Below, piece by piece: positions 10,981 through 64,000 of a stretch of 64,000 nt of DNA. The position numbers and the translations under genes are program-made. Source of the stretch: Takakia lepidozioides (lineage: Eukaryota > Plantae > Bryophyta). The notes beneath the pieces are model-generated. The model ran no database searches. It worked only from the letters and a program-made list of their open reading frames with translations, and was not told where the DNA came from. The stretch covers positions 33,356,001 to 33,420,000 of the forward strand of contig CM060732.1 in NCBI GenBank assembly GCA_030704615.1, written 5' to 3'. The stretch's first letter is position 1; each line of letters opens with the position of its first letter.

Positions 10981-11391
10981 CCAGCAATCGAAAGAATCAC
11001 TCGGGACGGGAAATCTGGAACCTGAATGGGTTGCATTGTTCCGAAACAACACATTGCGGCCAGTCTTGATGAGCACAACTTGGTTGTCTGACCGTTTTAA
11101 CTAACAGTACTGGCACTTGTCAGTGCGAACGTTCCTGTCTGCACCGAGAATACTGCTGGATCCACCCTCAGGAGAAACTGTCAGGAGATGTTATTTCGTT
11201 GCCGAATCGGCCATCATTGTCATACTTACTGGCTATGGAATCACACCTCCCACCTTCATGCATGTAGCTTGAAACAATACTTTCCACTTCAATGTGCGAC
11301 TTCCAATCGTCGATGGACTCCGCATGGTGCCTGTGAGCCTTGGTCTGTCGCTATACTGAACCTCGCACTTGCCAACTTCGTGCGGTGTTCG

Positions 11392-22250: not shown

Positions 22251-23763
22251 CCTTGCAAAGGAGGACCTGAGGACGACTTGGATGCCGATGACCTTGCGGA
22301 CAGCTACGAAGCCCTTAGATTTTGGAAATGATACGAAGCGGAAGAGCAGTCCGGCCTCCAAAAATGGAGCATCTGGGTCACACGTACCCACCGACGGAGG
22401 TGGAACGTGTTCATCACGCCAGCGGTGGATGAACCATACATCTTTCTCATCAACAAGTTATAGTTTGAGATCTGCCACCGAAGTCCATCCCCCCGGATGG
22501 AAATTCGGCGCGCCGCATTTACATCGAAGAGGGGATGGACTTCGTCGTGTCCAGTGGCTATCGGCCCACCTGGCAGTGACTGCCCATAGTTTGCATGGCA
22601 GGGTAGGAAACTGAAACGGCTACATTCATGCAGCAGCCAATCTTCATCGGTCCAGGATCCTGTACGGGGGAAATTTAAATGTGCCCTGGAGTGTGAATGT
22701 ACCTCACTTCTGTATGACTGGTTTCATTGTGTTGAATAACTCTCGGATTTGGCCCACTGTTTACAATTTGATGTCTCATTTCTACAATTTGTCTGTCTGG
22801 TTGAATAAAGCAGAGTAACCGGTATGTGAGTCATGTGTCAAGAATATACCAGAGTAATGTCGGACATTGAAATGCGGCAATTTCCATGTCACGCCGCATT
22901 TCCATGTCATCGAAATGTTGTCGGGGCAATGTCGGACAAAATGACCGCATTTCCATGTGGGACAAGAAATGCGGTGCATCATTTCCGTCCAGGTACACGA
23001 AATACCAACACGGGTCTATAAATTGATCAGAAAACGAGGTTGGCATTGCAAATGCGGCGACGCATTTCCAGCTTGGCAATGGAAACTTCTTTTTGGACAA
23101 GGGAATGCGGTGCCGCATTTCCGTCCAACACTTCGAAAAGTGCACCTATTTCCGACCAGCGCGATGGAATGCGTTACCGCATTTCCGAGAGAGGGTCTGC
23201 AAATGACAAATTGCGATGTCCGTTCTGGAAATGCGGCGCCGCATTTCCATGTCCGTCATCGACTTTTTTTTACAATGGAATGCGGTGCCAATTTTTGCTG
23301 ATGGGCCTGCAGTTCGAACAACCACCATCCCCAATATGGAAATGCGGCACCGCATTTCCAATCCCCCATGTCGGCCTCCTTGTTCGACCTCCTTGTTCGA
23401 CCTCTGTAAGCGTGGTGGCATCCATGCAATGAGCGGGAGAGGCCAAAACTGGCGTGTGGACAAAGGAAATTTTGGAAATGCGGCACGCATTCCAATTCAG
23501 ATTACTTTTTACTATGCCAACATTGAAATGGAAAATTAGTCCCTCCCCTGTTTTGGAAATGCGGTGCCGCATTTCCAAAAGAGGTTCTTAGAGTTGCCAA
23601 AATTTTGGAAATGCCCTGACCCATTTCTGATTTTGGGAGCGTCCTGGTTTGGGCGATTGTGTGGCTGGAATGCACACTGGAGAGGGGTCACGAATGTCGG
23701 GCAGAATTTCTTTATATACTCTGGAAGAGAATTTACATTTACAGAGACTTCATTAAAATTCTA

Positions 23764-26700
23764 TTAATCTTGAAAATCATCGGAATCCTCATCCTGTTCT
23801 AGACTGTCCTGCTCCTCCTCCACCCCCTCAGTGCCTCTCTCATCTCGCGACTGCTCGTTGGCCAGGCTTTCGAAAATCCCATCTTCCCCTTGCGGAACTG
23901 TCCATCTCACCTCCGTTGGGTCGTCTTCCTCCCTGTCTGCGTCGCTCTCATCCGCTGAATCACATATGTACTTTCGTACCCGTCTACCTGTCTGAGCTGC
24001 TGCCAACTCTTTCCTTATCCTTCTGTCCTCCCTAGCCCTCTCCAAAATCTGCTCTACTTTACTGGGATTCTCACTTCTTCTAATCGCTGTATTTGCGAGT
24101 TTAGCTGCATAACTAGGAAGGGAGTAGTCCCTCACCGGGCTCGTCATGAAGTCGGCCCTCGCAAAGAACGGGACATTCTTCCTGGCAGGAAGTGTAGGCC
24201 CTACATGTTTCGACCCGGACCCTGCAATCCTGCACATGACAATCATCAACGAGACTAATGAGAACCACAGTCGGGAAATTCCTTTGACATAAATGACCCA
24301 GAAGGCTTTGCAAACTTACAATGTTTGCACTCACTCGTATTCCGGGTTCTCCTCTGCATCAATGTCCACTGTGTCTTCCTCGGACTCCGACGAATCCGAG
24401 GAGACTTCCGCTCTGTCGGGAGCCTTCACATTCCGTTGCAGCCCCTCCAGATGGGATCCCCACACGGATGAATCCTCCTCGTAGGCAAAGAGGTGCCGGT
24501 CGGAAAACCGCCCAGCCCACATTGAGGCACCTGTTACAATGCCATCCACACATTACCACATGGCGCTTCAGATGTTGCGAACTACATCCTAACGAGAATT
24601 TGCAGAACAGCAGAGATCAAGATTCTGCATACCTGTCCCACAGATGAGGTCCCACTGTGCCCTCCACGTCTGTGCATGTCTCCATAATTGTCTGAATGAA
24701 GGCAGGGCTCCGAGTCCGTGAGTACCGCAGGGGTTCCGTTGAAGTGAGGCTATGAGGGAGAAGTTCCTTGGGAACGTTGTTGAACAGAACGTCGTAATCG
24801 AGTGGGTCGCAGTTCGGGTCAACCTTTCCTCCCTCCTTCCGGAAAGCAAAGGTGGAGTTTCCTTCACAAAGCAGTATGCATCGAACTGCTTCGTCTGCAT
24901 ACACAGGGGGAAAACGATTAGAAACCGAATGCGGCACCGCATTTGAAAGCACCCAAGCAAATGAATGGACGAGTGCCAGTGTCGTAATCACCTTCTTCCC
25001 TTCCGACCGAAGGCCCAGTGTGTTGATGCACGTCCACTTCTTTTTCAGAATCGGGACGGCGCTCTTGCGGGTCCACTTCGCAATTCCTGTCTGAGTGTTT
25101 TTTCCTCTGCTCGCCAGGACAACCACAGCCTCTGTCGTCCAACACCATGCGGGCAAGCCCGAATCCTTTCTTCCAAAAGTCCTCCGAGTACCTGTTCCAA
25201 GATGGCAAAGCTTGCAGTCCTTCCACAGGCTCTCCGTCCGGAATATCCAAGATGATCATATCGCAAGACCACTCGGTGGCATTTCCGCCCCTCCTACAAT
25301 CCTTGTCTGCACACACCCTCTCAAAGAACGAGACCATATTCTGAAATCCTGGGGTGTCGGAAGGCTCTTCGGCAGTCGCCTTCTTCAGTGCTCTGCCCTT
25401 CAGACCCTCCATGGTCTTCATGTATGCCAACTTGGCTGCCCGTCCATCCAAAGCCGCCAAGAAACTCTCATTTACACACTGGACTACAGTTTCGGGAGCC
25501 ACTTTCGGCCTCTTCATTTCCACCGGCTCGAAAGGGTGCCCCCCTGGGGGGTTGAAGAGTGCCTTCTTTGCCGAGCCAGTTCTCGTGCCTCTCGTGACAA
25601 CGGTGGGCACAGGGGAGGCAGCCTGCGTTTGGGGGGGTGGGCTGGTTGCAAAGTCTCCATCGGAGTCCCTCTTCCTCACCCTCTTCCTGAACAGGCTGTT
25701 TCTGCTTTCTTCGTTTTGGCGGGTGTCACAACAGCTGCTCCTTGCTGGCGAGTCCTCTTCTTCGACCCCTTCTGTTGGGCCTGCACAGCTGCATCCACCG
25801 TCTTTTGTGCCATCTCAGCTGCCTTTCTGGATTCTTCCAGAGCAGCAGATTCCTTTGCCGACTTTGGCCCAGCAGGGACACGTCTTTCCTTTCTCTTCTC
25901 TTCTGCCAAGGCGTGCAGATCTTTCTCAGACTCGTCAACAATACCGCCAGACATGTCCAGGTACCACGGGCATCCAACGAGATGCGCGGGATGCCATTGT
26001 TTCTGCATCTCGGGTGTGTAGACACAGCTTGGGCCCGCCACGGTCCAAGCCATGAAGAACGGGGGCTCTTGAGCCAGGGCCCCTGTCTGAAGGAGCACGT
26101 ATTTCATATACCTGCAAGGCAGTCAGCATGCGTGAGCAAAATTGAGACCAACCTACTGCAGAGTGCCACCGAAAACATAAAATGCGAATGCGGTGCCGCA
26201 TTTCCGAGACAAACCTCGTAACCAGGCTTCGCATACAAGGGCAGCTGTGCTTCACCTGTAAACAATTCGCATTGCAGCTTTCCCCGCTCCCTCCTGATGT
26301 GTAAACTCCACGCTCCTTCTTGCTGTCTGTAGCTCTCTGGCGAAAAGGTTGTCCTTGTACGCACATCTGAAACGTGTCACGTAGTCTTCCAATGTCTGTG
26401 TTCCCATCCCATTTGACGTACAAGCCGAACGAATTTGTGTGCATTACGACTTGCTCCTTCGCATTCGACATTACCTGCCATTCCCAAATGCATTGTCACG
26501 TAGCAGTTCAGGGAATTCATGTCAGAAAAGCAAATCTGGGGAAGTACCTTGAATTACCTGGAACCACCAAGTCATACGGTTGAGCCACACATCCACTGCA
26601 GGGTCGGAAACTTCCAGTGGAAAAGACCACATTGTCCTTATGCTCTCGGATGCATTCCAGATCGACAGCCACCGTGTCTGCCATTTCCGATCCAATGTCA

Positions 26701-28866
26701 GGGCTGGAAGAGAGTGGCTATTGCTAGGAAGGAAATTCAGTGCATTGAAACCTCACCTTCTCTTTCGCCTCCACACATGCCGTTGAGAGGTGATGCAGTT
26801 TCTCCAATTGCATGGTCGGCTGCATGGCCCGAGAATAGTGTTTTGCAATCTCGGGGATGAAGTCCTTTCCAAGTGCCGGATCTGCAATTGCCACCAGCTT
26901 CACAAGCTTTGACTTGTATTTGGTTCTGGACTTGACACCGGCTTCCTTCAAGTGCTCAGTCAATGACTGCAACGTTTTGACCTGCCCCTCACTTTCCATG
27001 AAGAAGCGTTTGGCATGGGCCAAATCCAGCTTGATGTTTGACTGCCAACAAAACATGCAGAAGCGTTACATTCGATTCATGTGGAAACATTACTGGAAAT
27101 TGGGGAAGGATGAGCAGAGGGAAATTGGAGCACGACTTACTTCGTATATCACCTCCACCATTCCATCCATAGTGAGACGATACCATGTCCGGTTGTTTTT
27201 GCAACGGCTTTCTGAATGAGCTCCGGCTCCAGCATTTCCGCAAACATCTGCGGATCAGAGACCAGTTTTCCTCACCCTGTACAGCATATGTGCCATGTGG
27301 GTATGCACGTACGCATTCTCAGTGACCCTGCAAGGCACACTCTCCAGTTCAGTACACGGAAGCACGGAATCAAACCAGAATGGAAACCGAAATGCGGCAC
27401 CGCATTTCGAGTGCTAGGGAGGGTATGAGTATCTTACGAGTTGAGGTCCGCCATGGCATTCTTGAGCAGGGGAGTCTGCCGCCTTCACCTTGAGGATGAC
27501 ACACTCCACCATGTAATGCCAGCCAATGTGCTTGGCATGGTTCTGCTTGATGTACTCCCACCAGGCGAGAAGTCGGTGATTCCCGTCCCACACAAAGAAC
27601 ATTTTTCCCGACATATGGCCGAAGTCGGATCACCCTTCAGCGTCGCCTCGAATTCGTGGTTGCGAGTGTGCCAGTGGGTATCCCACGTTGACAATTCATC
27701 GGCAGTGGGTCCACGGGTTTCGCCGTCCTCATTCTCTATGGAAACGTAAAACGCTGCCGATCCCAGACGGTACCCTTCTCGAAATGCGAACTTGAGCTTA
27801 TCCACATCTCCGGGAAGGGCCTGCCTGACGATGGGAAGGGAGACCATGCGACAGAGTGGGATTCGAAGAGTCCGCTGGAATACCCTGCTGCCCAGAACTC
27901 TGCCAATGCTACTGTGTGTCTCCTCCAACATTTTATCCGCTGCACTTTTGAAATCCTCCGGAGACATGTCTGTAGGTGCCGGTAGTGGCTGAGCAGCTGG
28001 AGCATCCTCAACTGGAGCTGCACTCTGGGGCCTGTGTGCGGGCAATTCTGCCATTGCAGAGGCCTCCTCCGGGCCTGCTAGCTCATCGGTGGTGAGGTCT
28101 GCCTGCGAACGTTCAGCGGCAGCACCCTCCTCCGGTACCAAATCGAGATCGGTCGATCCCATTGCCTTCGCTGCAGCAGAGTCGGCCCCAACATCTGCAG
28201 GCGGGAAATCCTCCAGGAACTGAGCTTCAGCTCGTGGAAGCGGTTTTGCGGGAGATTGTTCGGCCGTCGCCCTGATTGCCTTCTGCTTCCTCATCCTTGC
28301 AGGTGAAGGTGTCTGCAATAGAATCTGTCTTCTACCCTGCTGCTTCATTCGCGTTGGGGGGGTGAATCGGCCTGAGCCGGTTCAGAAGCCAGTAGAGGGA
28401 CGGGCTGCTTCTTCTTCGACTTTGCTGGAGAAGGGCCCGACCCCTGCTGGCGATTCTCCATGATCGAAGAACGCGAGTCGATCTCTGAGACTTTGAACTT
28501 GCCCTTCGAAGACGCGTCTTTGAATCGCAGAGGGCTAGGCCCGGCAGGAATACCCGCGCTCGGGGATCGGGTGGGTGTACGTGCTGCAGCTAGCTCCTCG
28601 GACTCTTCCTGCGGCTCTTCGGATTCCTGCGATCCCTCCAGCACGTCCACCTTTCCTGTTAGGCATGCAAACATGTTCTGCATTCAAGTCTCCTAGCATT
28701 CAGTCTCTAAGAATTACAGAAGCAAAATGGGGGGTTCGGTGCTCGATCAGCTGCGCGCAGCCCGATCGCATGGAGCTCTCACTGGTGGCTGGGTTGCCTG
28801 AGTGGCCTGCTGCTCGGAGATGGCAATCTCCTCCTGTAGACGCATCTGCTTCCTCCCCTTCGGCAT
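23764..28866 (-). CDS. ParB-like/amino-MTase-like gene, copy 2 (frameshifted in this assembly)
   Basis: Same exons as copy 1 (DGNHRLLA ~27575, DIPDG ~25240, DLICGTG ~24640). Lacks the copy 1 stop and has an extra ~520-bp segment (~27972-28491). Confidence 0.7.
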
Positions 28867-29289
28867 TGGCCTACGTCCGAAGTATAATTTCCGGAGCTTG
28901 CGACGAGGTCTCCTGTCTGGTGCACGAACTCCCCCCCTCTCAGGTTCGAGCATAAGAAGAACAGAGAGGGAAAAGGGGCAAAGAGTGCAGATGGAAAGGG
29001 CGCGAGAGGGGTGACTGAGGAGACACGACAAAAGTAGATGAAACGGCGGTGATGCACCACTTGGGTTCGAAGGGTTGGACGAAAGTGTCTCCTCGTGGAG
29101 TTTGCGTCATTACGAAATTCGAATCGTTGAGGGTACGCCTGCCGTCCGAAAATCAAACATCATTATCCAACGGTCAGGCCGCGCCGCCTCATGCCCCTTC
29201 AGTCAGATAGAGTGCCGACATGTGCAGCAATTCCGTTGCTCCACGTGTTCACATTTCAAGGCATTTCCGTCCCAGCGTCTGATGAGTTG

Positions 29290-30810
29290 GAGCGAAATGC
29301 GAATGCGGCGCCGCATTTCCGTTAAGTACCATCACGAAGCTACACATCCGTACTTGTTGGAAGAAAATGCGGCACCGCATTTCCGTTCCACCTTCACATA
29401 CCTTAGTTGTTGAACGGAAATACGGTGCCGCATTTCCGTCCCACAGCTCCATGTATGAGATTCAGAAGGGAAATGCGGCGCCGCATTTCCGTTCCCACTT
29501 CACATACGTTAGTTGATGAATGGAAATGCCGTGCCACATTTCCGTTCGGGAAAGTATAGAGGTCTCACCTGGACAGAAATGCGGTGTCGCATTTCCGGTC
29601 TGGAAAGGTTGAAGGTCTCACATGGATGGAAATGCGGCAACACATTTCCGTAGCACAGCTCCAGGCCGAATATACAAAACGGAAATGCGGCGCCGCATTT
29701 CCGTTCGAGAATGTCGGAAGGTGCGACTCGAACGGAAATGCGGTGCCGCATTTCTGTACCCGTTGCGCACGATTTTCAGTCAGAATGGAAATGCGTACCG
29801 CATTTCCGTTCTGTAGAGTATTAACGTCTGACGCTGGCGGAAATGCCTTCCCGCATTTTCGTTCCACAGCTCCATGCCTCACATACAAAACGGAAATGCG
29901 GTGCCGCATTTCCGTTTTGGAAGTCGGATGGTGGGACTCCGACGGAAATGCGGTACCGCATTTCAATTCCGATGTTTCAGGATATTTCATCAGAACGGAA
30001 ATGCGGTGCCGCATTTCCCTTTTAATCTAATACATGTTCTGGAATGTTGGGAGGTGCGACTCGGATGGAAATGCGCTGCCGCATTTCAGTTCCGATGGTT
30101 CACGATTTTCAGTCAGAACGGAAATGCGGCCGCATTTCCGTTCTGGAATGATGGTAGGTGCGACTCGGATGGAAATACGGTGCCGCATTTCAGTTCAGAT
30201 GTTCACGATTTTCAGTCAGAACGGAAATGCGGTGCCGCATTTCCGTTCTGGATAGTGTGAATGTCTCAACCGGTCGGAATTGCGCTGTATGCTGTCGGAA
30301 TCTTACTCGCTCCAGGCATCAGATACAAAATGGAAATGCGGCGCCGCATTTCCTTGGAATGTCGAAAAGTGCGACTTTGACGGAAATGCACCGCATTTCT
30401 GTTCCCCTTCATAGAATGAAATGCGGTACCGCATTTCCGTTCTGAGAGTATGAATGTCTTTTAAGGACGGAAATGTGCTGCAGCATTTCTATCCCTCAGC
30501 TCCATGCATCAGATACAAAATGGAAATGCGGCGCCGCATTCCCGTTCTGGAATGTCGAAAAGTGCGACTCGGACGGAAATGCGGTGCCGCATTTCTGTTC
30601 CCGTTGTTCAAAATCTCAATCAGAACGGAAATGCGGTACCGCATTTCCGTTCCACCTTCACATACCGTGCTTGCTGGATGGAAATGCGTTACCGCATTTC
30701 CGTTCTGGAGAGTATAAAGGTTTCCCCCGGACGGAAACTCGGCCGCATTTCCGTCGCTCTGTTGCATGACCAAGATGCAATACGGAAATGCGGCGCCGTA
30801 TTTCCGTCCA
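29290..30810. repeat. Family A palindrome array, copy 2 (different unit number and arrangement from copy 1)
   Basis: Repeated GGAAATGCGGYRCCGCATTTCC at mostly ~53-bp spacing. Confidence 0.9.
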
Positions 30811-31228
30811 CCAGCAATCGACAGAATCACTCGGACGGGAAATCTGGAACCTCAATGGGTTGCATTGTTCCGAAACAACACAATTGCGGCCAGTCTTGAT
30901 GAGCACAACTTGGTTGTCTGACCGTTTTAACCAGCAGTCCTGGCACTTGTCAGTGCGAACGTTCCTGTCTGCACCGAGAATACTGCTGGATCCACCCAGA
31001 AACTGTCAGGAGATGTTATTTCGTCGCCGAATCGGCCATCATTGTCCTACTCACTGGCTATGGAATCAAACCTCCCACCTTCATGCATGTAGCTTGAAAC
31101 AATACTTTCCACTTCAATGTGCGACTTCCAATCGTCGATGGACTCCGCAGATCCACTTAGATGGTGCCTGTGAGCCTTGGTCTGTCGCTATACTGAACCT
31201 CGCACTTGCCAACTCCGTGCGGTGTTCG

Positions 31229-34200
31229 ATGGCTCCGAATTCCTACGCTATAGTTTGCTGTCCTCCGCAACTTGGGAGAGCCTGGATCCCAAACGAGGGA
31301 GGACTTTGCAGAGTGACTGAAACTTACCTTTGTTCCAAATTCAAGCTCAAACCGGGCACAGTTTATTTGGAAGAAGAAAGGAAGGATGTTCCTGGACAGG
31401 TTGACGAGACCATTGTCGTGCTAGGTAACGACGGAGGTTGCGGAATCGAATGGCACGTTCCCCCGTCAGACACCATCCTGTACCGAGCTGTGGGAATGCC
31501 CATTCCCTTTCCGAATCAGTCGCTGCCCACACCATCCACAAAGGAGTCCGGAACCGAGAGGCGGCCCACTGCCAACAGAGAGGTATGCAACGATAATCAT
31601 TCCCGACCTGGACCGTCAAGACCCTCCATAGCTTCTCGTGTGGACGTATTCGACATTTCCGACGAGGAAGATGATTGCATTGAGGTACCCATGTCCTCCA
31701 CACGGTCGTTCAAATCCGGCATGGACGTCTCTGTAGGTGCTACGCATGTGCCCTCGAGCATAACTCCAACCCGGTCCATTGTGCAGCTCCTACGACAACA
31801 TCACCTCGATGGTTCTCGCTCCGAGCTGGCTGCTCTCGACTATGCCAAATTCCCAGTCAGAAAGGTAACTTTTCTGCCTCCCGAAGTCGATGGCAATGTC
31901 ATCTTCGAGTTTCCACCTGTTTCTTCGTCAAAGAAAGCCTCCGGGATGTTAACAGACATGGATCGAAAGCATGACGGACACCCCTGGTGTGTGACGAAGA
32001 CCAGTAGCACGAAAATTGCTGATGGTGTTCGTGTACGATATGTCCTCTGTGCGGGGAAGCTGAGGTGCCTCAATCCCACCTGCTTCCACTTTCTCTCCAA
32101 AGGAGGGCGGAGAAACGAGACGGATTGGACTGGCACAACGCATCATCCATTCATTGTCTCCAGCCAAGCTCCTGCGGGTTCTTTCAAGTGTGCACATTGC
32201 AAAGAACCACCGACGTGCATGTCCATGTGCAGAGCCAAGCAATATTACGTAATCCATTTGCTCCCGACTTGACTAGAGCTTGCATACACGTTGGGGTCCA
32301 CTGCCACCCCTTGGCGAGAGGCAACATGCGTGAGGCTGTGCAGGAAGCACACGACATCATAAAAGAGGAGGTGAAATTGAGCCCCGGAGCCAGACCAAAG
32401 CAGATTCAGCTGAAGGCAGCCCACAAGATTGCTCTTGGCAAAATCATGTCTGAAGATGGTTCCGACCGAGAGCCCTTGACCGAAGACGAGATGCGTGACC
32501 TCTTGGAGTCCGTCTCGCACGTTTGTAGTCCGAATGTGCGGAATCACATCGTATCTTGCAAGCAGGAGTTCGGCAGGGGTCGGACATGTACTCAATCCTG
32601 GAGGTGAAACGAATGACTGGATGATACTACATCCAAGGTAGCAGGTTTCCAGGGCAAGGCAGCGAATCCGATCGTTGTTACATTTTCAAAATGTCGACGT
32701 GTGGGCCTGGGAGTGGAGTCGACTTGGTCACTCGCATGACAACTGGAAACTTGTCGAATGCTTGGGTGATGTTTGATCACATCAAGCGAATTACAAACCA
32801 TCAGTGGGTGACTATGGGTGCGCATGTTTATGACTATCACTCCAAGAGGCTCATGACGATTGCAATCTGCGAGATGAAAGGGGAGGACACACAGTCCGAG
32901 ATGCATCTGTGGGAGGGCATAAACGAGCAGATGGCAAGGGCGGGATTGCCAGAGCCCAATTTCAGGGGATTCATGGCAGACAACGCTCAGGCCAACTGGG
33001 CAGCGGTGCGGCGTGTGTACGGTGAGGACCCCAATGTTCCAATGGAGGGGAAAGAGAGATCCTGTGGATTCCATTGGATGCAGAGTCTATCCCACTACAC
33101 TACCAAATTTTTTGCTAGCTCATTCCAGGCTGAACACCGTGTCCTTTGTACGGCGTGGAAGGATGCACCCACATTTGATGACGCGGAGGTTAAGTTTGCT
33201 ATCATCGAGGCTTGGTGGAACACGTCAGGTGCAGTGGAGACAACCAATCTGGGAGCATTGCACAGCTGGTTGGGGTGGTGGCATTTTCGGTATCGACAGT
33301 TCGGACAGTACATGCGGGAGGTAGGCTGCTGTCAATTTCGTTCATTTGTCTTTCTGTTACGGACATTTCGATTGGTCCCTCACCGTTGTTTGTGTCCTTC
33401 TAGGAGCGGTGCTTGGATTCCGACACGGACATGCCGAACACGAATATGGCAGAATCGGTCCACTCCTCCTGGCGAGCGTCTTCTGCCGCACATCTGGTGG
33501 ACGTAGTGACGGCCACAACGGAGGACATCGACAGAGCAATCATGCAGCAAGCCACGTACTACAAGTTCCTGAGCGGCAAACAATGGGGCTTTGGGCCGGA
33601 CAGGGAGGAATTGTTGGTACGAACAGCTTCGAGGTCCAAGAATCCAGTGAAATGGGCGACAGCATTGCGAGAGAAGATCAAAGGGACGCCTCTGCACCGC
33701 AGAGGTGAACACCTAGAGGGGGACGTCCGGACTCGCCCTGTCAGGCGGAGGATTGAAGAGGAACCCGGGTGCGAAGAGGATTCCTGGAGATCCGACAGGA
33801 ACATTCGGACAGCACCTCGAGGTCCCGTCATGTTGCCGCACAATGTGTCTTCCAGCAGTGGAAGCCCAAGAAATTCCAGATCGCCGTCGCCTTCAACCGG
33901 GGATTTCGTGCAACAAATTCCCACCGCTCCCTTGCCCCACATTCCGCCCGCTGTTATGCAGTATGGCCAAGCCATTGTGGAGACGACTGTGTCTGCCTCA
34001 CAGTGGAGAATTGCTCGCACAAAGCCGTCGTTTCGAGGAAGGTGTTCCGCAATTCGTGTGGATACACGGCAACGTTGTTTAGAGATGATAAGGAGGAATC
34101 CAGATGGGGCTGTCCCTGCTCCTACTTTTACAGGAAGATTTGTCCATGCAAAGTTTGCGGAGGCGACAACCACCCAGTTCTGGTTCTGCAGGCACGACAT

Positions 34201-34873
34201 TATGACTTGCGTGTATGGAAAGCCCAAGTACGGCATACAGACAATGCCAGAGGCTCCCCGGTGTGGCCGGTGGAACCAGGCTGCGATCTGAGTCAGGTTG
34301 AGGCCGACGCCCTTACCGCCGCAGGATTTCGGATGGTGCAGCGCACTGACGTCCCAGACAACCATTTCCGCTTCCACAGCCTCCACCACCGACCCCTGTG
34401 AGAGCAAGAACAATGGGACACACAGCTCTAAGCATCCTACACACCGTTGGGGAAACCGAAGAGGCGGCGACCCCTCAAAAGTGAACGAGACAAGGATGGG
34501 AATGCACTTCGGATGAACTGTACAATCCAGAGCTCGACAGAAGTGCCCCCACCAGGATTCGGGCGTGTATCAGATGGCCACGGCGGGCTCAGCTGTTCGC
34601 AATGAGGTGTACACCATCACCATTTCAGAATTACCCCCACCTGCAATTGCACCGACTTCCAGATCATGGCGAACAAGGGGGCATCATACTGCCCTTGCAA
34701 GCATTTGTACTACGTGTACCTAAAGAGACTCCGTTGTAATTCCACAACTCATCACTTCATACATGCACCAGGGTTGAGCCCCCAGGTTCACACTCTTCTG
34801 AATATGGATCCAGGGGACCAGTGAGCTTGGCTTGCGGTCCACATACAATGGTACGCCCATCCTTTTCGGATAG
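31229..34873 (+). CDS. MULE transposase, copy 2
   Basis: MAPNSY...; DGHPW; VMFDH; FMADNAQANWAAV; CGFHW; NMAESVH; SWIM CNC...CPCKH. Confidence 0.85.
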
Positions 34874-36488
34874 TAGAACTGTACTGCTGCCAGTACCTCA
34901 GACTCTGGCCACAGAAAGGTCCGACATATGTCTTGCCTACCAGTAACCTGTTTTGATCGAACTAAGATATTACTATATCGTTCACTTGTTTCCACGTGCA
35001 TGTATTTTTATGTTGGAGGGTTCATGTTTTTCTGCTTTCCGAAAACTTGCTCTCCTCATTCGACCTCCGACAAGGAAATGCGGCGCGAATTTCCAAGTAT
35101 CGTCGTAGGTACCCCCAGAGCGGCCTTCGCCAACACCAAACCGCTCCGAAATTTCGCACGTGCGAACCCTAATGCGGCACCCTATTTCCCAGTTCAGTTG
35201 CAAACTTTCCCGCCGAATACCCGAAAGACAGAATTGTGAAGTACTGCAGACTGTATTGGTGCAGACTCCATTGGTTCAATCGCGGCAAAGGGTCAGCTTC
35301 ATTCCAATGTTAAGGCATGTAAAACCGCGGAATACTCTATACAGGCCAGTATGCGACGTCCTTTTGCAGTGGTATACTGGATTTCCCGTTGCACGGTCAC
35401 TTATTTCCATGAGCGGATCTATAAAACCATGAGCGGACTTGTTACTGACGACATATCTTCGCCGCATTACATGATCTGGAACGTCCAAAAACGGCAAAGG
35501 TCAATAAAAAACTATTATTTTTAATACTTGTTTAATCTGCCGCATTTCCAAATTTGGAGGAGTCCGCTCATGAAATCCGTATCTTAGACTTCGGCTCACC
35601 GCTCATGCGGCTCATGCGGCTCATGGCTCATGGCTCATGGTTTCTGCTCATGAAATAGTAAACCTCCCAACAATGTCTCTTACGCCGCTCGGCACCATAC
35701 ACACCCACTAGGGGAGGGGTGGCACTAGGTATTCTTCGTACACATCACTCTCCCAGTACCACCACAAAAATAACTGTACCCATCCCTCTCCGATCTCACC
35801 TCCAAATTATCCAACTACATCCCCCAACAGTGTGCCCTATCACCCTCATACATCTATATATGTCATCACATATAGATGACCTACCCCTAATACCAGACAT
35901 ACTAAACACTATCTCTCTAACTACCACCCACCCAGATAACCGACATCATCATATTATACCGGCAGGGGACTTTAACAGAGACATTTCTTTGCTCGGCCAC
36001 TCACATAATGGTACCCACAAACCCCCCATCCTCAATGGACCATGAATGGGCCCAATTCACCCAGCACTTGCAATTCTAATACATCCCTGCGGACTTACCA
36101 CTCCAGTCAAGGTGGCCTTAACTACTCCTCCTTAAGCCTCCTGGATGGATTCTACCTCAACCTGCAACGAAACCCCGACATACCTTCTTAGTCACGTTCA
36201 CATCGATAGTCTATGCAACTCGGACCACTACCCGGTCTCAGTCTCCCTCCCATCCTCCCTTATTCCCTTCCGTCCCATCCCCGATGTACATCCCCCCCCC
36301 CCAGCCGAGAATTCTCTCACCCATACCTCACTCTAACATTCAAGCATTCCTAAAACATTTCCACCACCCAGTCTCCGCACACTCCATACATAAAACTATC
36401 CCACATACTCTCCGATACCAACCTCCATGTCTCCCCCAATGCTGCATGGATTGAAGCCGAGGTCACACTCACATCTACTATACAAGAA

Positions 36489-45081: not shown

Positions 45082-48000
45082 CGTACACCCACCCGATCCC
45101 CGAGCGCGGGTACTCCTGCCGGGCCTAGCCCTCTGCGATTCAAAGACGCGTCTTCGAAGGGCAAGTTCAAAGTCTCAGAGATCGACTCGCGTTCTTCGAT
45201 CATGGAGAATCGCCAGCAGGGGTCGGGCCCTTCTCCAGCAAAGTCGAAGAAGAAGCAGCCCGTCCCTCTACTGGCTTCTGAACCGGCTCAGGCCGATTCA
45301 CCCCCCCAACGCGAATGAAGCAGCAGGGTAGAAGACAGATTCTATTGCAGCAGACACCTTCACCTGCAAGGATGAGGAAGCAGAAGGCAATCAGGGCGAC
45401 GGCCGAACAATCTCCCGCAAAACCGCTTCCACGAGCTGAAGCTCAGTTCCTGGAGGATTTCCCGCCTGCAGATGTTGGGGCCGACTCTGCTGCAGCGAAG
45501 GCAATGGGATTGACCGTTGATCTCGATTTGGTACCGGAGGAGGGTGCTGCCGCTGAACGTTCGCAGGCAGACCTCACCACCGATGAGCTAGCAGGCCCGG
45601 AGGAGGCCTCTGCAGTGGCAGAATTGCCCGCACACAGGCCCCAGAGTGCAGCTCCAGTTAAGGATGCTCCACCTGCTCAGCCACTACCGACACCTACAGA
45701 CATGTCTCCGGAGGATTTCAAAAGTGCAGCGGATAAAATGTTGGAGGAGACACACAGTAGCATTGGCAGAGTTCTGGGCAGCAGGGTATTCCAGCGGACT
45801 CTTCGAATCCCACTCTGTCGCATGGTCTCCCTTCCCATCGTCAGGCAGGCCCTTCCGGAGATGTGGATAAGCTCAAGTTCGCATTTCGAGAAGGGTACCG
45901 TCTGGGATCGGCAGCGTTTTACGTTTCCATAGAGAATGAGGACGGCGAAACCCGTGGACCCACTGCCGATGAATTGTCAACGTGGGATACCCACTGGCAC
46001 ACTCGCAACCACGAATTCGAGGCGACGCTGAAGGGTGATCCCGACTTCGGCCATATGTCGGGAAAAATGTTCTTTGTGTGGGACGGGAATCACCGACTTC
46101 TCGCCTGCTGGGAGTACATCAAGCAGAACCATGCCAAGCACATTGGCTGGCATTACATGGTGGAGTGTGTCATCCTCAAGGTGAAGGCGGCAGACTCCTC
46201 CCTCCTCAAGAATGCCATGGCGGACCTCAACTCGTAAGATACTCATACCCTCCCTAGCACATTCGAAATGCGGTGCCGCATTTCGGTTTCCATTCTGGTT
46301 TGATTCCGTGCTTCCGTGTACTGAACTGGAGAGTGTGCCTTGCAGGGTCACTGAGAATGCGTACGTGCATACCCACATGGCACATATGCTGTACAGGGTG
46401 AGGAAAACTGGTCTTACTGATCCGCAGATGTTTGCGGAAATGCTGGAGCCGGAGCTCATTCAGAAAGCCGTTGCAAAAACAGACCGGACATGGTATCGTC
46501 TCACTATGGATGGAATGGTGGAGGTGATATACGAAGTAAGTCGTGCTCCAATTTCCCTCTGCTCATCCTTCCCCAATTTCCAGTAATGTTTCCACATGAA
46601 TCGAATGTAACGCTTCTGCATGTTTTTGTTGGCAGTCAAACATCAAGCTGGATTTGGCCCATGCCAAACGCTTCTTCATGGAAAGTGAGGGGCAGGTGAA
46701 AACGTTGCAGTCATTGACTGAGCACTTGAAGGAAGCCGGTGTCAAGTCCAGAACCAAATACAAGTCAAAGCTTGTGAAGCTGGTGGCAATTGCAGATCCG
46801 GCACTTGGAAAGGACTTCATCCCCGAGATTGCAAAACACTATTCTCGGGCCATGCAGCCGACCATGCAATTGGAGAAACTGCATCACCTCTCAACGGCAT
46901 GTGTGGAGGCAAAAGAGAAGGTGAGGTTTCAATGCACTGAATTTCCTTCCTAGCAATAGCCACTCTCTTCCAGCCACTGACATTGGATCGGAAATGGCAG
47001 ACACGGTGGCTGTCGATCTGGAATGCATCCGAGAGCATAAGGACAATGTGGTCTTTTCCACTGGAAGTTTCCGACCCTGCAGTGGATGTGTGGCTCAACC
47101 GTATGACTTGGTGGTTCCAGGTAATTCAAGGTACTTCCCCAGATTTGCTTTTCTGACATGAATTCCCTGAACTGCTACGTGACAATGCATTTGGGAATGG
47201 CAGGTAATGTCGAATGCAAAGGAGCAAGTCGTAATGCACACAAATTCGTTCGGCTTGTACGTCAAATGGGATGGAACACAGACATTGGAAGACTACGTGA
47301 CACGTTTCAGATGTGCGTACAAGGACAACCTTTTCGCCAGAGAGCTACAGAGAGCAAGAAGGAGCGTGGAGTTTACACATCAGGAGGGAGCGGGGAAAGC
47401 TGCAATGCGAATTGTTTACAGGTGAAGCACAGCTGCCCTTGTATGCGAAGCCTGGTTACGAGGTTTGTCTCGGAAATGCGGCACCGCATTCGCATTTTAT
47501 GTTTTCGGTGGCACTCTGCCAGTAGGTTGGTCTCAAGTTTTGCTCACGCATGCTGACTGCCTTGCAGGTATATGAAATACGTGCTCCTTCAGACAGGGGC
47601 CCTGGCTCAAGAGCCCCGTTCTTCATGGCTTGGACCGTGGCGGGCCCAAGCTGTGTCTACACACCCGAGATGCAGAAACAATGGCATCCCGCGCATCTCG
47701 TTGGATGCCCGTGGTACCTGGACATGTCTGGCGGTATTGTTGACGAGTCTGAGAAAGATCTGCACGCCTTGGCAGAAGAGAAGAGAAAGGAAAGACGTGT
47801 CCCTGCTGGGCCAAAGTCGGCAAAGGAATCTGCTGCTCTGGAAGAATCCAGAAAGGCAGCTGAGATGGCACAAAAGACGGTGGATGCAGCTGTGCAGGCC
47901 CAACAGAAGGGGTCGAAGAAGAGGACTCGCCAGCAAGGAGCAGCTGTTGTGACACCCGCCAAAACGAAGAAGCAGAAACAGCCTGTTCAGGAAGAGGGTG

Positions 48001-49916
48001 AGGAAGAGGACTCCGATGGAGACTTTGCAACCAGCCCACCCCCCAAACGCAGGCTGCCTCCCCTGTGCCCACCGTTGTCACCAGAGGCACGAGAACTGGC
48101 TCGGCAAAGAAGGCACTCTTCAACCCCCCAGGGGGGCACCCTTTCGAGCCGGTGGAAATGAAGAGGCCGAAAGTGGCTCCCGAAACTGTAGTCCAGTGTG
48201 TAAATGAGAGTTTCTTGGCGGCTTTGGATGGACGGGCAGCCAAGTTGGCATACATGAAGACCATGGAGGGTCTGAAGGGCAGAGCACTGAAGAAGGCGAC
48301 TGCCGAAGAGCCTTCCGACACCCCAGGATTTCAGAATATGGTCTCGTTCTTTGAGAGGGTGTGTGCAGACAAGGATTGTAGGAGGGGCGGAAATGCCACC
48401 GAGTGGTCTTGCGATATGATCATCTTGGATATTCCGGACGGAGAGCCTGTGGAAGGACTGCAAGCTTTGCCATCTTGGAACAGGTACTCGGAGGACTTTT
48501 GGAAGAAAGGATTCGGGCTTGCCCGCATGGTGTTGGACGACAGAGGCTGTGTGGTTGTCCTGGCGAGCAGAGAAAAAACACTCAGACAGGAATTGCGAAG
48601 TGGACCCGCAAGAGCGCCGTCCCGATTCTGAAAAAGAAGTGGACGTGCATCAACACACTGGGCCTTCGGTCGGAAGGGAAGAAGGTGATTACGACACTGG
48701 CACTCGTCCATTTATTTGCTTGGGTGCTTTCAAATGCGGTGCCGCATTCGGTTTCTAATCGTTTTCCCCTGTGTATGCGACGAAGCAGTTCGATGCATAC
48801 TGCTTTGTGAAGGAAAACTCCACCTTTGCTTTCCGGAAAGAGGGAGGAAAGGTTGACCCGAACTGCGACCCACTCGATTACGACGTTATGTTCAACAACG
48901 TTCCCAAGGAACTTCTCCCTCATAGCCTCACTTCAACGGAACCCCTGCGGTACTCACGGACTCGGAGCCCTGCCTTCATTCAGACAATTATGGAGACATG
49001 CACAGACGTGGAGGGCACAGTGCTGGACCTCATCTGTGGGACAGGTATGCAGAATCTTGATCTCTGCTGTTCTGCAAATTCTCGTTAGGATGTAGTTCGC
49101 AACATCTGAAGCGCCATGTGGTAATGTGTGGATGGCATTGTAACAGGTGCCTCAATGTGGGCTGGGCGGTTTTCCGACCGGCACCTCTTTGCCTACGAGG
49201 AGGATTCATCCGTGTGGGGATCCCATCTGGAGGGGCTGCAACGGAATGTGAAGGCTCCCGACAGAGCGGAAGTCTCCTCGGATTCGTCGGAGTCCGAGGA
49301 AGACACAGTGGACATTGATGCAGAGGAGAACCCGGAATACGAGTGAGTGCAAACATTGTAAGTTTGCAAAGCCTTCTGGGTCATTTATGTCAAAGGAATT
49401 TCCCGACTGTGGTTCTCATTAGTCTCGTTGATGATTGTCATGTGCAGGATTGCAGGGTCCGGGTCGAAACATGTAGGGCCTACACTTCCTGCCAGGAAGA
49501 ATGTCCCGTTCTTTGCGAGGGCCGACTTCATGACGAGCCCGGTGAGGGACTACTCCCTTCCTAGTTATGCAGCTAAACTCGCAAATACAGCGATTAGAAG
49601 AAGTGAGAATCCCAGTAAAGTAGAGCAGATTTTGGAGAGGGCTAGGGAGGACAGAAGGATAAGGAAAGAGTTGGCAGCAGCTCAGACAGGTAGACGAGTA
49701 CGAAAGTACATATGTGATTCAGCGGATGAGAGCGACGCAGACAGGGAGGAGGACGACCCAACGGAGGTGAGATGGACAGTTCCGCAAGGGGAAGATGGGA
49801 TTTTCGAAAGCCTGGCCAACGAGCAGTCCGCTGGAGATGAGAGAGGCACTGAGGGGGTGGAGGAGGAGCAGGACAGTCTAGAACAGGATGAGGATTCCGA
49901 TGATTTTCAAGATTAA
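45082..49916 (+). CDS. ParB-like/amino-MTase-like gene, copy 3 (5' end in the gap)
   Basis: DGNHRLLA 46082-46105; DIPD 48428-48439; DLICGT 49026-49043. GT-AG introns e.g. 46234-46345, 49045-49146, ~49343-49447. Stop at 49916. Confidence 0.75.
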
Positions 49917-51446
49917 TAGAATTTTAATGAAGTCTCTGTAAATGTAAATTCTCTTCCAGAGTATATAAAGAAAATTCTGCCCGACATTCGTGACCCCTCT
50001 CCAGTGTGCATTCCAGCCACACAATCGCCCAAACCAGGACGCTCCCAAAATCAGAAATGGGTCAGGGCATTTCCAAAATTTTGGCAACTCTAAGAACCTC
50101 TTTTGGAAATGCGGCACCGCATTTCCAAAACAGGGGAGGGACTAATTTATCCATTTCAATGTTGGCATAGTAAAAAGTAATCTGAATTGGGAATGCGGTG
50201 CCGCATTTCCAAAATTTCCTTTGTCCACACGCCAGTTTTGGCCTCTCCCGCTCATTGCATGGATGCCACCACGCTTACAGAGGTCGAACAAGGAGGTCGA
50301 ACAAGGAGGCCGACATGGCGGGATTGGAAATGCGGTGCCGCATTTCCATATTGGGGATGGTGGTTGTTCGAACTGCAGACCCATCAGCAAAAACTGGCAC
50401 CGCATTCCATTGTAAAAAAAAAGTCGATGACGGACATGGAAATGCGGCGCCGCATTTCCAGAACGGACATCGCAATTTGTCAATTTGCAGACCCTCTCTC
50501 GGAAATGCGGTAACGCATTCCATCGCGCTGGTCGGAAATAGGTGCACTTTTCGAAGTGTTGGACGGAAATGCGGCACCGCATTCCCTTGTCCAAAAAGAA
50601 GTTTCCATTGCCAATCTGGAAATGCGTCGCCGCATTTGCAATGCCAACCTCGTTTTCTGATCAATTTATAGACCCGTGTTGGTATTTCGTGTACCTGGAC
50701 GGAAATGATGCACCGCATTTTCTTGTCCCACATGGAAATGCGGTGCCCCATTTCGATGCGGACATGGAAATGTGGCGCCGCATTTCGATGCCGACATGGA
50801 AATGCGGTGCCGCATTTCAATGTCCGACATGGCGTTACTCTGGTATATTCTTGACACATGACTCACATACCGGTTACTCTGCTTTATTCAACCAGACAGA
50901 CAAATTGTAGAAATGAGACATCAAATTGTAAACAGTGGGCCAAATCCGAGAGTTATTCAACACAATGAAACACAGTCATACAGAAGTGAGGTACATTCCA
51001 GGGCACACTCCAGGGCACATTTAAATTTCCCCCGTACAGGATCCTGGACCGATGAAGATTGGCTGCTGCATGAATGTAGCCGTTTCAGTTTCCTACCCTG
51101 CCATGCAAACTATGGGCAGTCACTGCCAGGTGGGCCGATAGCCACTGGACACGACGAAGTCCATCCCCTCTTCGATGTAAATGCGGCGCCGAATTTCCAT
51201 CCGGGGGGATGGACTTCGGTGGCAGATCTCAAACTATAACTTGTTGATGAGAAAGATGTATGGCTTCATCCACCGCTGGCGTGATGAACACGTTCCACCT
51301 CCGTCGGTGGGTACGTGTGACCCAGATGCTCCATTTTGGAGGCCGGACTGCTCTTCCGCTTCGTATCATTTCCAAAATCTAAGGGCTTCGTAGCTGTCCG
51401 CAAGGTCATCGGCATCCAAGTCGTCCTCAGGTCCTCCTTTGCAAGG

Positions 51447-52010
51447 ATGCCGTGCTTCCGGAACCGGGACGACTGCCCCTTTGGAGGCATCGATTATGCA
51501 ATGTATTCGGCCACATCGGGAGACATTGTTATCTGGTACACAGATTACACAGAAGATACTGGTTCGATTGTGGAAACATTGGTGGCTTTTGAGTATATCG
51601 TAGGCCACTACGCCTTCGAGCGGGGTGACGATCTTGGTTTGAGGAGTCCGTGGCTCCTGCGCATCCTCGATTCCGATTTTCCCAGCTACGACGGTCACCC
51701 ATGCAGAAGAAGGCGCACTGCTATGCTGTTGCGGTGGAACTGCTGCCACTGGACGTGGGTGGACTCCATCGGAGAGACCTATTCTCCTCGAGGAGTGCGC
51801 TCCTCTTCTCCATTGTATGGGGACATTCGCATTGGTGTGGACGACGAAAACGTGAAGATTTCCATATTCGATGGTGGTATGATTGAAGGGCAGGACATTG
51901 TGGTGAACATCACTAGGGGCGGTACAACGGCTGCAATCGACTTTACATGGAGGAGCCCCAGGACTCATGAGCTAGTTCTGAGAGCAGTCGAAGTCCCATT
52001 GACAACGTGA
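51447..52010 (+). CDS. Cargo protein X1, copy 3 (intact frame)
   Basis: MPCFRNRDDCPFGG...EVPLTT, uninterrupted. Confidence 0.65.
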   Translation: MPCFRNRDDCPFGGIDYAMYSATSGDIVIWYTDYTEDTGSIVETLVAFEYIVGHYAFERGDDLGLRSPWLLRILDSDFPSYDGHPCRRRRTAMLLRWNCCHWTWVDSIGETYSPRGVRSSSPLYGDIRIGVDDENVKISIFDGGMIEGQDIVVNITRGGTTAAIDFTWRSPRTHELVLRAVEVPLTT

Positions 52011-52473
52011 CTTGTATTCAGTAGGCACAGGGCTCAAGATTTGAGGGCACAATCAGCACAGTAGACGTGCTTCAAATGCAATTCATGTGGATCAATAAAA
52101 ACCTCATTGTGCCCTCTTTTTATTCTATTCTGTGTCCATTGTTCCGAGAATGCGTCATTGCTCATTTCGTTTGGGATTGGGAGTGTGGGTGAATTTTGCA
52201 AATGGCTGGTAGGCTGAAATGGGCCCCCATTGTACAGAGCAGTACCACCCTACCATTCGCGAAACATTGCCTTTCAATATATAATTCTAAATAACATTGC
52301 CGAACCTCCTTCATCGGGAGGTCCTTCTCCCCCTATGACCGTGGCACCCTAAACCCTATTCCCGCGGACACTCATTTCCGGAAAATAGTGCTGCTCATGT
52401 TTTTTTCCACACTTACGACTCTGCTCATGGCTCATGCCGCTCATGGCTCATGGCTCATGAAATAGCAGCCCCC

Positions 52474-61749: not shown

Positions 61750-63523
61750 CACTCACTTGTAAACCGGGGGCTCCTCGGCCTCGATCCCAACTTCCTCCCC
61801 CTGCTCCTTCTCGGATTTTTCCTCATCCTCCGAGGATGCCTCTTCCTCTTTCGGCAGACGTTCAGCCGCTGCAAGTTCCGAGTTGTGGAGGGCAGTATCT
61901 AGCTCGAAGGCGAACACATGCCTGTCGGACAACGTCCCTGCCCACATTGAAGCACCTGAGGAACAAAGCGGGCGGTTAATAGCTTGCGGCATGCAATTGC
62001 AATCGGGCCAGGGGACAAACTGAGCACGTGAAGGCTTACCCGTGCCGCATGTGAGGTCCAGAATCCACCCTTGGACATCCGAGCACGTCTCCATGAGGGT
62101 TTGGATGAAAGCAGGGCTCCGGGTCCGGCTGTACCGCCACGGTTTGCCTGTCTTTGTGTCCTTCGGCATACTAGAGTGGGGCATATAGTTGTAGAGGACA
62201 TCGTAGGTTACAGGGTCCACAGCGGCATCAACAAGACGACCGTCGTTGCGGAATTTGAACGTAGACCCTCTCTTCACAAAGCAATATGCCTCAAACACCA
62301 ATGTCTGCACATCCAACAAAGAAGGGATCAACTCCAGGGTCTACTTAACATACACCACAATATGAAGTGAATGCAATAGATTGATAACTTACACTTTGGC
62401 CCTCTGTTCGCAACCCCTGCGTACTGATGCAGAACCATTTTCTGAGGAGGACCGGGGTGACACTTTTCGGTGTCCACCTTGCCACCGCATTCTCTGTGGT
62501 CTTCCCTCTTGTGGCAAGGACAACCACACATCCACCGTCATCCAGAAGCCATCCCATCGCCAGCCCCAAACCCGGCTTTCCAGTAGTCCTTAGTAAACCT
62601 GTTCCAGGTGGGCACACCATCCGGGCCCTCCAGCAGCTCCCCATCTGGAATGTCGAGGAGAATCATGTCGCAAGCTCTCTCCACCTCAACCCCCCCCCCC
62701 GAGTGCTCTTGCAATTCGTGCTCACAGCCGTGAAGAATTCCATCATGGCTTCAAAACCAGGGGTGTCTTTAGGCTCTGTACCGCCAGCCCTCTTCTTGGC
62801 TTTCCCCTTCTGCTCCACCAGAGACTTGTTGTGTGCCACCTTCTTCGCCCTGGCAGCGAGAGCGTCAAGGAAGCTCTCATTGACGCATTGGATGATGGTT
62901 GGAGGTTCTAGCTTTGGCCTGTGCGTAAACGTCACCGCCGAATACCGCCGTGTAGGCTCGCCCTCAAATGCCAACTTCTTGGCAGAGCCAGTCCCACTCC
63001 GAACTGACTTGGGAACCCGGACGACTGGTGACTGGGTAGGAGCAACAGCAGTCGCAGGACCTTGAACAAAGTCGTCATCCCATTCAGTCTCTTGGGTCCC
63101 CTCCTGCGCCTCCTCCGATGCCCCGATGGTTTTCTTCTTTTTGGGTGTACTGCACTCACCTGTTTCCTTGTCCTTTTCCTTTGGCCTTTACTCTTCTCAT
63201 GCAATTTCTCCTGAATTCCTGCTTGAGCAAGCTCTGCCGCTTTCCTGGAGTTTGCAAGCGCTTTTGCCTCTTTTGCACCCAACAGAGGCACGGAGCCCGG
63301 TTTCGTCGGAATTCAGCATCCAGCTTCAATTGAAACCCGGATGGGTCGAGCGAGCCGGGCGGAAGGTCCACATACCAAGGGCAATCACGCAAATGTTCCA
63401 GATGTCACTACTTCACAATATCGTCAGTGTACATGGAGTCAGCCCCAGGGTTCCTCCATGCCAGGAAGAATGGTGGCTCGAAAGACAGATGACCTTTCTC
63501 CAAAAGGGAGAACTTACAGTACC
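61750..63523 (-). pseudogene. Family C homolog of the amino-MTase-like gene (3' exons)
   Basis: CDMILLDIPDG (~62640-62672), WRYSRTRSPAFIQTLMETCSDVQGWILDLTCGTG|intron|ASMWAGTLSDRHVFAFELD, EPPFFLAW, CPWY. Intron positions match family A. Confidence 0.8.
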
Positions 63524-63599: not shown

Positions 63600-64000
63600 T
63601 GGGCCTAGAAATGGGAAAATGGCGCCGAATTTCGGTTTTTGGTGACTGCCACCCTAGGGACTTAGCCATCTTGGGAGCCCTGAACTGGAAATTCGGCGCC
63701 ATTTTTCCCGGTTTGGCCCGAAGATGGCTAAGTCCCAGAACCGCAATAGGGCCTAGAACTGGAAAAATGGCGCCGAATTTCCAGTTCAGGTCCAGCCACC
63801 CTAGGGACTTAGCCCGCAAATGGCTAAGTCCCTGAACGGCAATAGGGCCTAGAACTGGAAAATGGCGCCGAATTTCCAGTTCAGGGCCAGCCACCCTAGG
63901 GACTTAGCCCGAAAATGGCCAAGTCCCTGAACGGCAATAGGGCCTGGAAGTGGGAAATGGCGCCGAATTTCCAGTTCAGGGCCAGCCAGTCTAGGGACTT
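63600..64000. repeat. Family C ~95-bp tandem repeat with imperfect palindrome GAACTGGAAAATGGCGCCGAATTTCCAGTTC and a second inverted repeat AGGGACTTAGCC/GGCTAAGTCCCT
   Basis: Units start GGGCCT at ~63601, 63750, 63845 and 63940, and run off the window end. Confidence 0.85.

Follow-up and report, generated by a model that had tools for sequence, protein, structure and literature searches.

What does a DNA amino-methyltransferase fold do in a transposon when the aromatic residue of its motif IV is missing? The question arises from a 64,000-nucleotide stretch of the genome of Takakia lepidozioides (contig CM060732.1, positions 33,356,001 to 33,420,000; hereafter the window), in which a methyltransferase-like domain carries D-I-P-D at the position of motif IV. 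The answer to which we give an even chance is that this domain, which the accessory gene of what we call a Mutator-like transposon encodes together with a predicted ParB-like part, is likely a pseudo-methyltransferase that likely binds the palindromes of its own element against silencing. The part of this answer that stands on results comprises the fold of a fern homolog, the loss of the aromatic across the family, purifying selection, the anatomy of the element and the presence of family-specific repeats in non-coding DNA.

The window contains three copies of an element of about 15 kb, family A, and the empty site of copy 1 at 59101-59109 (Table 1). We called the element Mutator-like because of its 9-bp target duplication and the CxxH and SWIM-like motifs of its transposase, which we take to be marks of MULE transposases; the SWIM match reached an E value of 0.1 only, and the Pfam scan of the transposase gave no PF10551/Pfam MULE match. 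Copy 1 is inserted in a retroelement-like repeat (276-865 and 15841-19081), of which an uninterrupted copy at 55914-59684 supplies the empty site, while copy 3 sits within a different transposase gene (52474-53365, minus strand), which resembles the element's own in type but has diverged. The terminal inverted repeats (866-920 and 15790-15840) hold short internal tandem CATGAGC units. An open reading frame of 229 amino acids at 51321-52010 (plus strand) has a paralog with 48% identity at 2326-3027 (plus strand), located in a 770-bp stretch that is unique to copy 1; both lack a Pfam match. The copy of the second family, C (61700-64000), seems to break off near 61750. Contigs that match this family number 20,123 in DNA run X1 and 12,046 in X3, both from one sample, which is consistent with a very abundant family and does not measure copy number.

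Table 1. Positions in the window of the elements, genes, motifs and repeats.
Feature	Position	Strand	Basis and remarks
Family A element, copy 1	866..15840	+	Complete, terminal inverted repeats, exact 9-bp target duplication
Family A element, copy 2	21222..35666	+	Complete; 9-bp duplication lacks a single base, within a run of C
Family A element, copy 3	45082..52473	-	Truncated at 45081 by a gap in the assembly; start of terminal inverted repeat at 52473
Transposase gene, copy 1	11188..14997	+	CxxH and SWIM-like motifs; frameshifted in this assembly; head-to-head with accessory gene
Exon with predicted ParB/Srx-like domain	45700..46233	+	WDGNHR at 46079, GxxR P motif
Exons 2-5, middle region, no assigned fold	46346..47421	+	Introns 3 and 4 spliced in contig X9/27 (guessed RNA)
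Exon 6, linker and N-terminal half of MTase-like domain (motif III region, IV, PxWN, DxG turn)	47568..48684	+	Copy splicing
Exon 7, motifs X and I	48780..49044	+	Homologous exon of family C spliced in contig X9/24
Exon 8, end of motif I, motif II (AYEED), acidic linker	49147..49342	+	Copy splicing
Predicted exon 9, C-terminal tail	49448..49916	+	In frame after GTGAGT donor; no spliced contig seen
Family C accessory gene, 3' part	61750..63521	-	Scan, splicing
Motif IV D-I-P-D, family A copy 3	48428..48439	+	Scan; aligned to CcrM DPPY in family profile
DIPD, copy 1	5622..5633	-	Scan
DIPD, copy 2	25236-25247	-	Scan
DIPD, family C	62643-62654	-	Scan
Palindrome array between the two genes, copy 1	9172..10974		Repeat scan; 26/30 spacings 52-53 bp
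Palindrome array, copy 2	29300-30804		Repeat scan
20-bp palindrome in intron splitting MTase-like domain	48731..48750		Other intronic sites at 46265 and 47473
Cluster of family A palindrome 3' of accessory gene, copy 3	50106..50818		Repeat scan
Family C near-palindromic repeat, different from that of A, upstream of exon 6	63617..63971		Repeat scan; likely intronic

Copy-by-copy splicing of the accessory gene yielded a single open frame (45700 to 49347, about 975 codons) that was interrupted only by single-site gaps, which differed between the copies; a low-complexity N-terminus lies upstream of this conserved frame. The predicted exon 9 would add about 156 residues, including an SLPSYAA stretch that is common to the fern homolog P0045. 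The family C contig X9/24 is spliced over both introns of the methyltransferase-like domain and the family A contig X9/27 over introns 3 and 4, both from a run, X9, that is only guessed to be RNA; the same guess applies to run X10, no run with this stretch being annotated as RNA.

Since all four copies are frameshifted in this assembly, DIPD could be the degenerate form of a DPPY in defunct copies, or a fortuitous match within mis-assembled sequence. We consider this extremely improbable. At the copy-3 exon gaps (45854, 47613, 48038 and 48571) and at the exon-7 acceptor, the base is present in independent contigs, and the family C stretch at 62550-62564 is shorter in such contigs; because the independent contigs read otherwise, the frame breaks in copy 3 and family C probably reflect errors of the assembly or lesions private to single copies. 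Comparison of copies 1 and 3 gave 28 synonymous differences at 643 sites and 14 non-synonymous differences at 2270 sites, corresponding to a dN/dS ratio of 0.14 (Fisher p 6e-10), and by this codon-level measure the accessory gene appears to be under strong purifying selection. Decay is further opposed by the contigs spliced in the guessed-RNA run and by the aromatic-less state of the motif, which families A and C have in common with homologs from ferns and other sources. Between the families, over 196 core codons, A and C have 61% amino acid identity and a dN of 0.31, with synonymous sites saturated. Many of the differences between copies 1 and 3 are at synonymous third positions. C-to-G and G-to-C transversions were unusually frequent among family A variants at 45100-49950, with 20/54 places in run X4.

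The DIPD motif that a previous sequence-only reading had claimed for both families was recovered in a six-frame scan of the 64-kb window. Family A reads CDMIILDIPDG in three copies, at 48410 (plus strand), 5651 (minus) and 25265 (minus), and family C reads CDMILLDIPDG in one copy at 62672 (minus). The D-I-P-D codons of A and C differ by three synonymous changes and no non-synonymous change. A run of four identical residues is expected by chance with a probability of about 0.14 at 61% domain identity, so that this arithmetic is weak evidence on its own.

To this comparison we added a homolog set of 22 matches from a search of 1.84 billion representatives, in which the homologs with names are from Adiantum ferns. 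Motif IV is spanned by 19 of the 22 (all but P0005, P0006 and P0016). Position 1 is Asp in 18/19 and position 3 is Pro in 18/19, while position 2 is Pro in none and position 4 is Thr in seven, Glu in four, Asp in four, Phe in two and Ser and Asn in one each, with no Tyr or Trp. The aromatic is thus missing from 17/19 homologs and present, as DLPF, in 2/19. The earlier reading of DIPD as conserved therefore stands for D-x-P, which is held in the family, and falls for position 4, which varies; as judged from the aligned homologs, the constrained unit appears to be D-hydrophobic-P rather than DIPD. That reading would have been undermined by a prevalence of DPPY or DIPY among homologs, and neither occurs in any of the 19, whereas all seven prokaryotic controls have DPP[YF]. 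The PF01555 pattern [DNS]PP[YFW] is accordingly matched neither by the DIPD of families A and C nor by the homologs, with PP in 0/19 and the aromatic in 2/19. In metagenome loci of a distant lineage, the motif reads DC[PL][DN]G or has decayed forms.

We also inferred a tree from 29 rows, after exclusion of near-duplicates (P0012, P0017 and P0020), fragments (P0003-P0006 and P0016) and the frameshifted L022. Families A and C were placed in a set of 13 rows without any aromatic (support 96/94), and the two DLPF rows were nested within the family beside a DFPT row, which requires a minimum of two changes. As far as the tree can tell, this topology allows either one early loss and one regain of the aromatic or several losses.

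Searches with the window's own methyltransferase stretch gave no relevant match in Pfam, PHROG, NCBIfam or PDB sequences. The fold was modelled on a fern homolog, P0013, from an alignment of 21 rows (pLDDT 69, mostly >80 in the core; pTM 0.65). This model aligned to M.MboIIa with a VIA-align Z of 17.6 (rmsd 2.8, 200 aligned), to CcrM with 16.8, to M.BceJIV with 16.4 and to the rotifer N4CMT with 15.2, and Foldseek matched it to M1.HpyAVI (E 2e-11). The family profile matched the DpnA-type M1.HpyAVI (E 4.5e-7) and CcrM (E 1.2e-6), the homolog P0067 scored above the PF01555 cut-off, and the Atlas's own model was nearest to PF01555 proteins, the top two rows being ParB-fused clusters. Taken together, the model of the fern homolog and the profile matches indicate that the DIPD domain has a beta-class amino-methyltransferase fold.

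The beta class had been proposed from the motif order IV...X-I-II, and this assignment was borne out by the structure and profile searches, the order being preserved once two GT-AG introns are removed. In each of the four copies, RSPAF, LDLxCGTG and A[YF]ExD come after motif IV; in copy 3 they are at 48963, 49023 (LDLICGTG) and 49191 (AYEED), and family C has LDLTCGTG and AFELD as equivalents. Nor was motif IV placed away from the active site, which would have spoken against the earlier reading of an altered motif IV: in the model of P0013, the strand of motif IV (166-172) ends with DLPT, and in the family profile alignment D-l-P-t falls on the DPPY of CcrM with no gap. The motif X/I and II regions had likewise been described as intact. 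The motif II acid and GxG are indeed held, but other residues stand in place of the HPxxKP His and the DPFxGSG Pro-Phe. At the motif X position, Gly is found in 11/13 and Tyr in 2/13 of the family rows, with Tyr in families A and C, and the His is intact in 5/6 prokaryotic controls. The DPF of motif I was present in only 1/14 homologs, the motif having drifted toward the generic D/E-x-G-x-G-x-G form, and the motif III Asp column, which is uncertain in the alignment, is Ser in A and C. Retained are the Asp and Pro of motif IV, the Trp of PxW, GxG and mostly the motif II acid.

The reading that we favour is that the domain may be an altered or inactive methyltransferase fold kept for DNA binding. 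Counting against it are the two DLPF homologs nested within the family, and the retained motif-IV Asp and Pro, PxW, GxG and motif II acid, which are also compatible with a working enzyme. An active 6mA or 4mC DNA methyltransferase whose motif IV departs from the canonical form, and with which the element would mark its own DNA, is a serious possibility, though on balance an unlikely one. Such an enzyme might activate the amino group through the Asp and the Pro backbone, and obtain stacking from the PxW Trp, from the Tyr at the motif X His position in A and C or from a partner subunit. It would be in keeping with the near-invariance of Asp and Pro (18/19 each), with the retention of the whole fold and of the residues on the SAM side, with purifying selection, and with one prokaryotic control that also carries Tyr at the motif X His position; the algal ParB-methylase transposon proteins have, moreover, been proposed to modify their own elements (PMC12477816; bioRxiv 2025.02.11.637652, in the portions accessible). 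Arguing against activity, position 4 varies freely among D, T, E, S and N, and the family has also lost the Phe of motif I and the His of motif X, together with, in A and C, the motif III Asp in its uncertain column. Loss of the Tyr also inactivates or impairs the enzymes assayed: according to the accessible text of PMC3036652, the change of the DPPY Tyr to Gly in HP0593 (Y107G) gives an inactive protein, while Y108A/G of TaqI is described as reduced, not dead. In N4CMT, as described in the available part of PMC10406627, the target base is modelled as stacking on the motif-IV Tyr, and His253 and Phe280 hold the cofactor. The suggestion that the fold serves as a reader of modified bases fits poorly, since stacking on the flipped base is the task of the very residue that is missing.

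The pocket could instead have been retuned, either to alkylate proteins or non-base amines with SAM or to recognise host 5mC or another modified base, which we regard as doubtful. Asp or Glu at position 4 in 8/19 homologs and in both window families would suit such a change, as would the drift of motif I to the generic form, whereas the best structural matches were all DNA amino-methyltransferases and a base reader would be expected to retain the aromatic. Aminopropyl transferases have DxxD at the same strand end. Position 4 is Thr in 7/19 and Ser, Asn or Phe in 4/19, which leaves no invariant DxxD, and the aminopropyl-transferase reading was set aside for this reason.

The other conserved part of the accessory protein is predicted to be a ParB-like domain on the basis of a single GxxR motif and of Atlas features, which place the first conserved exon at 0.94 to a ParB/Srx cluster. 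The earlier reading overlooked this setting, which accounts for the gene: a fusion to a predicted ParB-like part, borne by a Mutator-like transposon that has palindrome arrays of its own. The motif, WDGNHR, corresponds to the GxxR P motif (Box II) by which the ParB fold is defined in the accessible part of PMC12704722, and is present in all three A copies and in L013, a metagenome locus of the distant lineage. The exon had no match in Pfam, HH-align (probability 0.25), PDB profile or fold searches, the last of which was blank for a single-sequence model with a pLDDT of 44.

With up to 2 mismatches allowed, 85 sites of a 20-bp palindrome were counted, as compared with none in any of 100 shuffles, and the palindrome is found in 3/7 introns and no exon of the accessory gene. 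The repeats are family-specific and located in non-coding DNA. A query with a distant subfamily identified 17 metagenome loci, six of them with a ParB-like exon upstream of the methyltransferase exon. Only L013 of these 17 also has a transposase gene head-to-head, with a 116-bp array between the genes; the remaining loci are short, rearranged or show neither arrangement, and the repeat core of this lineage is not clearly palindromic. We count the recurrence of transposase, repeat array and ParB-methyltransferase gene in a distant plant lineage in favour of our reading. No metagenome locus was recovered with the motif X-I alignment as query, word-index searches gave no long homologs, which is weak evidence, and the homolog P0010 had no match in phages.

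Some features of the arrays were noted along the way. The intergenic 116-bp repeat of the distant lineage is also present inside the ParB-methyltransferase gene (L007:4213-4686, L002:4063), and unrelated tandem arrays of 71-72 bp and 15 bp are found near homologous genes (L013:17989-19225; L001:12454-13282). The repeat periods are close to whole helical turns of about 10.55 bp: 53 bp in family A is 5 turns (9172-10974), 95 and 148 bp in family C are 9 and 14 turns (63633-63971), and 116 bp in the distant lineage is 11 turns (L013:7156-7735). By this post hoc arithmetic, the near-helical periods suggest phased binding sites.

To examine traces of cytosine methylation, we counted C-to-T differences between copies by sequence context. 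The element had 32/1155 at CG, 22/1191 at CHG and 52/3479 at CHH, and the neighbouring retroelement 10/123, 14/288 and 14/894, respectively. The element was below the retroelement at CG (Fisher p 0.005) and CHG (p 0.009) and equal to it at CHH (p 0.88), a contrast that rests on one retroelement family, non-independent copy pairs and an error-prone assembly. The non-coding DNA of the element had no CG excess (6/279 versus 27/768 at CHH). The low frequencies of CG and CHG transitions are a weak hint of a family that escapes 5mC. Copies of the distant lineage are strongly CpG-depleted (observed/expected 0.12-0.25 in L013), which counts against the favoured reading; because of this depletion, the distant-lineage family appears to have ended up methylated.

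If the fold is indeed a pseudo-methyltransferase kept for binding, the ParB-like part would load on the palindromes and possibly spread as a nucleotide-gated clamp, and the methyltransferase fold would be a dimerising DNA-binding module that still holds SAM via the Asp, the PxW and the motif II acid that it has kept. Occupancy of the element would then lower silencing by host 5mC, as VANC does on VANDAL elements, and the accessory protein may descend from active ParB-methylase transposon genes such as those of algae.

The closest known arrangement is that of Sola1-1_Ec32 from Ectocarpus, of which the available part of PMC12477816 describes an accessory gene with a ParB-like and an N4C/N6A methyltransferase domain. 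As in the window copies and L013, a single protein joins the two domains on the strand opposite to the transposase of a giant DNA transposon, and the proposal is that it binds the element which encodes it, and modifies that element; we liken the proteins by layout, not by descent. Sola1-1_Ec32, however, belongs to the Sola1 superfamily of a brown alga and is predicted there to encode an active enzyme, whereas the element described here is Mutator-like, resides in a land plant and belongs to a family in which 17/19 homologs lack the motif-IV aromatic. Red-algal Plavaka and Mutator elements carry the accessory genes PAG2 and PAG3, and their PF01555 and ParB genes lie next to arrays of inverted repeats (bioRxiv 10.1101/2025.02.11.637652). 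These resemble our family in the transposon-borne PF01555 methylase and ParB-like protein, the tandem inverted repeats by the ParB gene and the proposed self-targeting, but the functions are divided between two genes (methylase and SET; ParB and 2OG oxygenase) rather than fused, and the accessible portion of that preprint reports no degenerate motif.

VANDAL elements of Arabidopsis likewise combine an accessory protein, VANC, with family-specific short motifs in non-coding tandem repeats, including introns, but as far as the accessible text of PMC5735166 describes, VANC has DUF1985/DUF287 domains and non-palindromic targets of 8-9 bp. Pfam searches with five exon or ORF pieces of our accessory gene (exons 2, 4 and 5 being outside the scan) gave no DUF1985/DUF287 match. 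Binding and demethylation have been shown for VANC (PMC5735166), whereas for the window protein we infer them by analogy. M.MboIIa, CcrM, M1.HpyAVI, the rotifer N4CMT, Marchantia DN4MT1 and phage ParB-methylase fusions are alike in fold, motif order and, for the phage proteins, ParB fusion. Compared with canonical beta-class enzymes, our family has D-hydrophobic-P-polar in place of [DNS]PP[YF], altered HPxxKP and DPFxGSG motifs, and introns; motif IV of Marchantia DN4MT1 is given as TSPPY in the available part of bioRxiv 10.1101/2021.02.12.428880. Inactive amino-methyltransferase folds, including a transposon-borne N6A precedent, are known from METTL14 and the methyltransferase domain of DIRS1 retrotransposons (available part of PMC4738411). 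There too, the catalytic motif is disrupted and the domain kept, with a likely role in nucleic-acid binding or as a scaffold, but these proteins belong to RNA-directed or PCIF1-derived clades and are described there with neither a ParB fusion nor a DNA repeat array. ParB-methylase transposon genes are thus already known from brown and red algae, while the motif-degenerate form of land plants is apparently undescribed, no description having been found in the open-access literature.

For the algal proteins, writing of 6mA or 4mC has been proposed free of any assay, and VANC is the only transposon protein named, in the accessible part of bioRxiv 10.1101/2025.02.11.637652, as a case in which binding and modification of the protein's own element are known. 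In the land-plant family, the architecture is under selection, yet the aromatic that is thought to be essential has been lost from most members and kept by a fern subclade. DIPD and DLPF therefore form a matched pair for asking whether the element needs a mark or only binding. If the DIPD enzyme is active, a textbook rule for amino-methyltransferases would be overturned; if it is inactive, the family would represent a eukaryotic parS-like self-recognition system. More tentatively, and with the whole rather more probably wrong than right, seed-free land plants may have a widespread transposon anti-silencing system derived from a bacterial chromosome-segregation clamp, in which a nucleotide switch of the ParB type would load onto arrays of palindromes in helical phase and pull a methyltransferase fold, put to a new use, along the element, the fold either shielding the DNA from host 5mC or doing chemistry without the motif-IV aromatic, and in which protein and palindrome co-evolve within each family. 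Such a system would be a second, independent counterpart to VANC and would offer a programmable tool for locus-specific desilencing.
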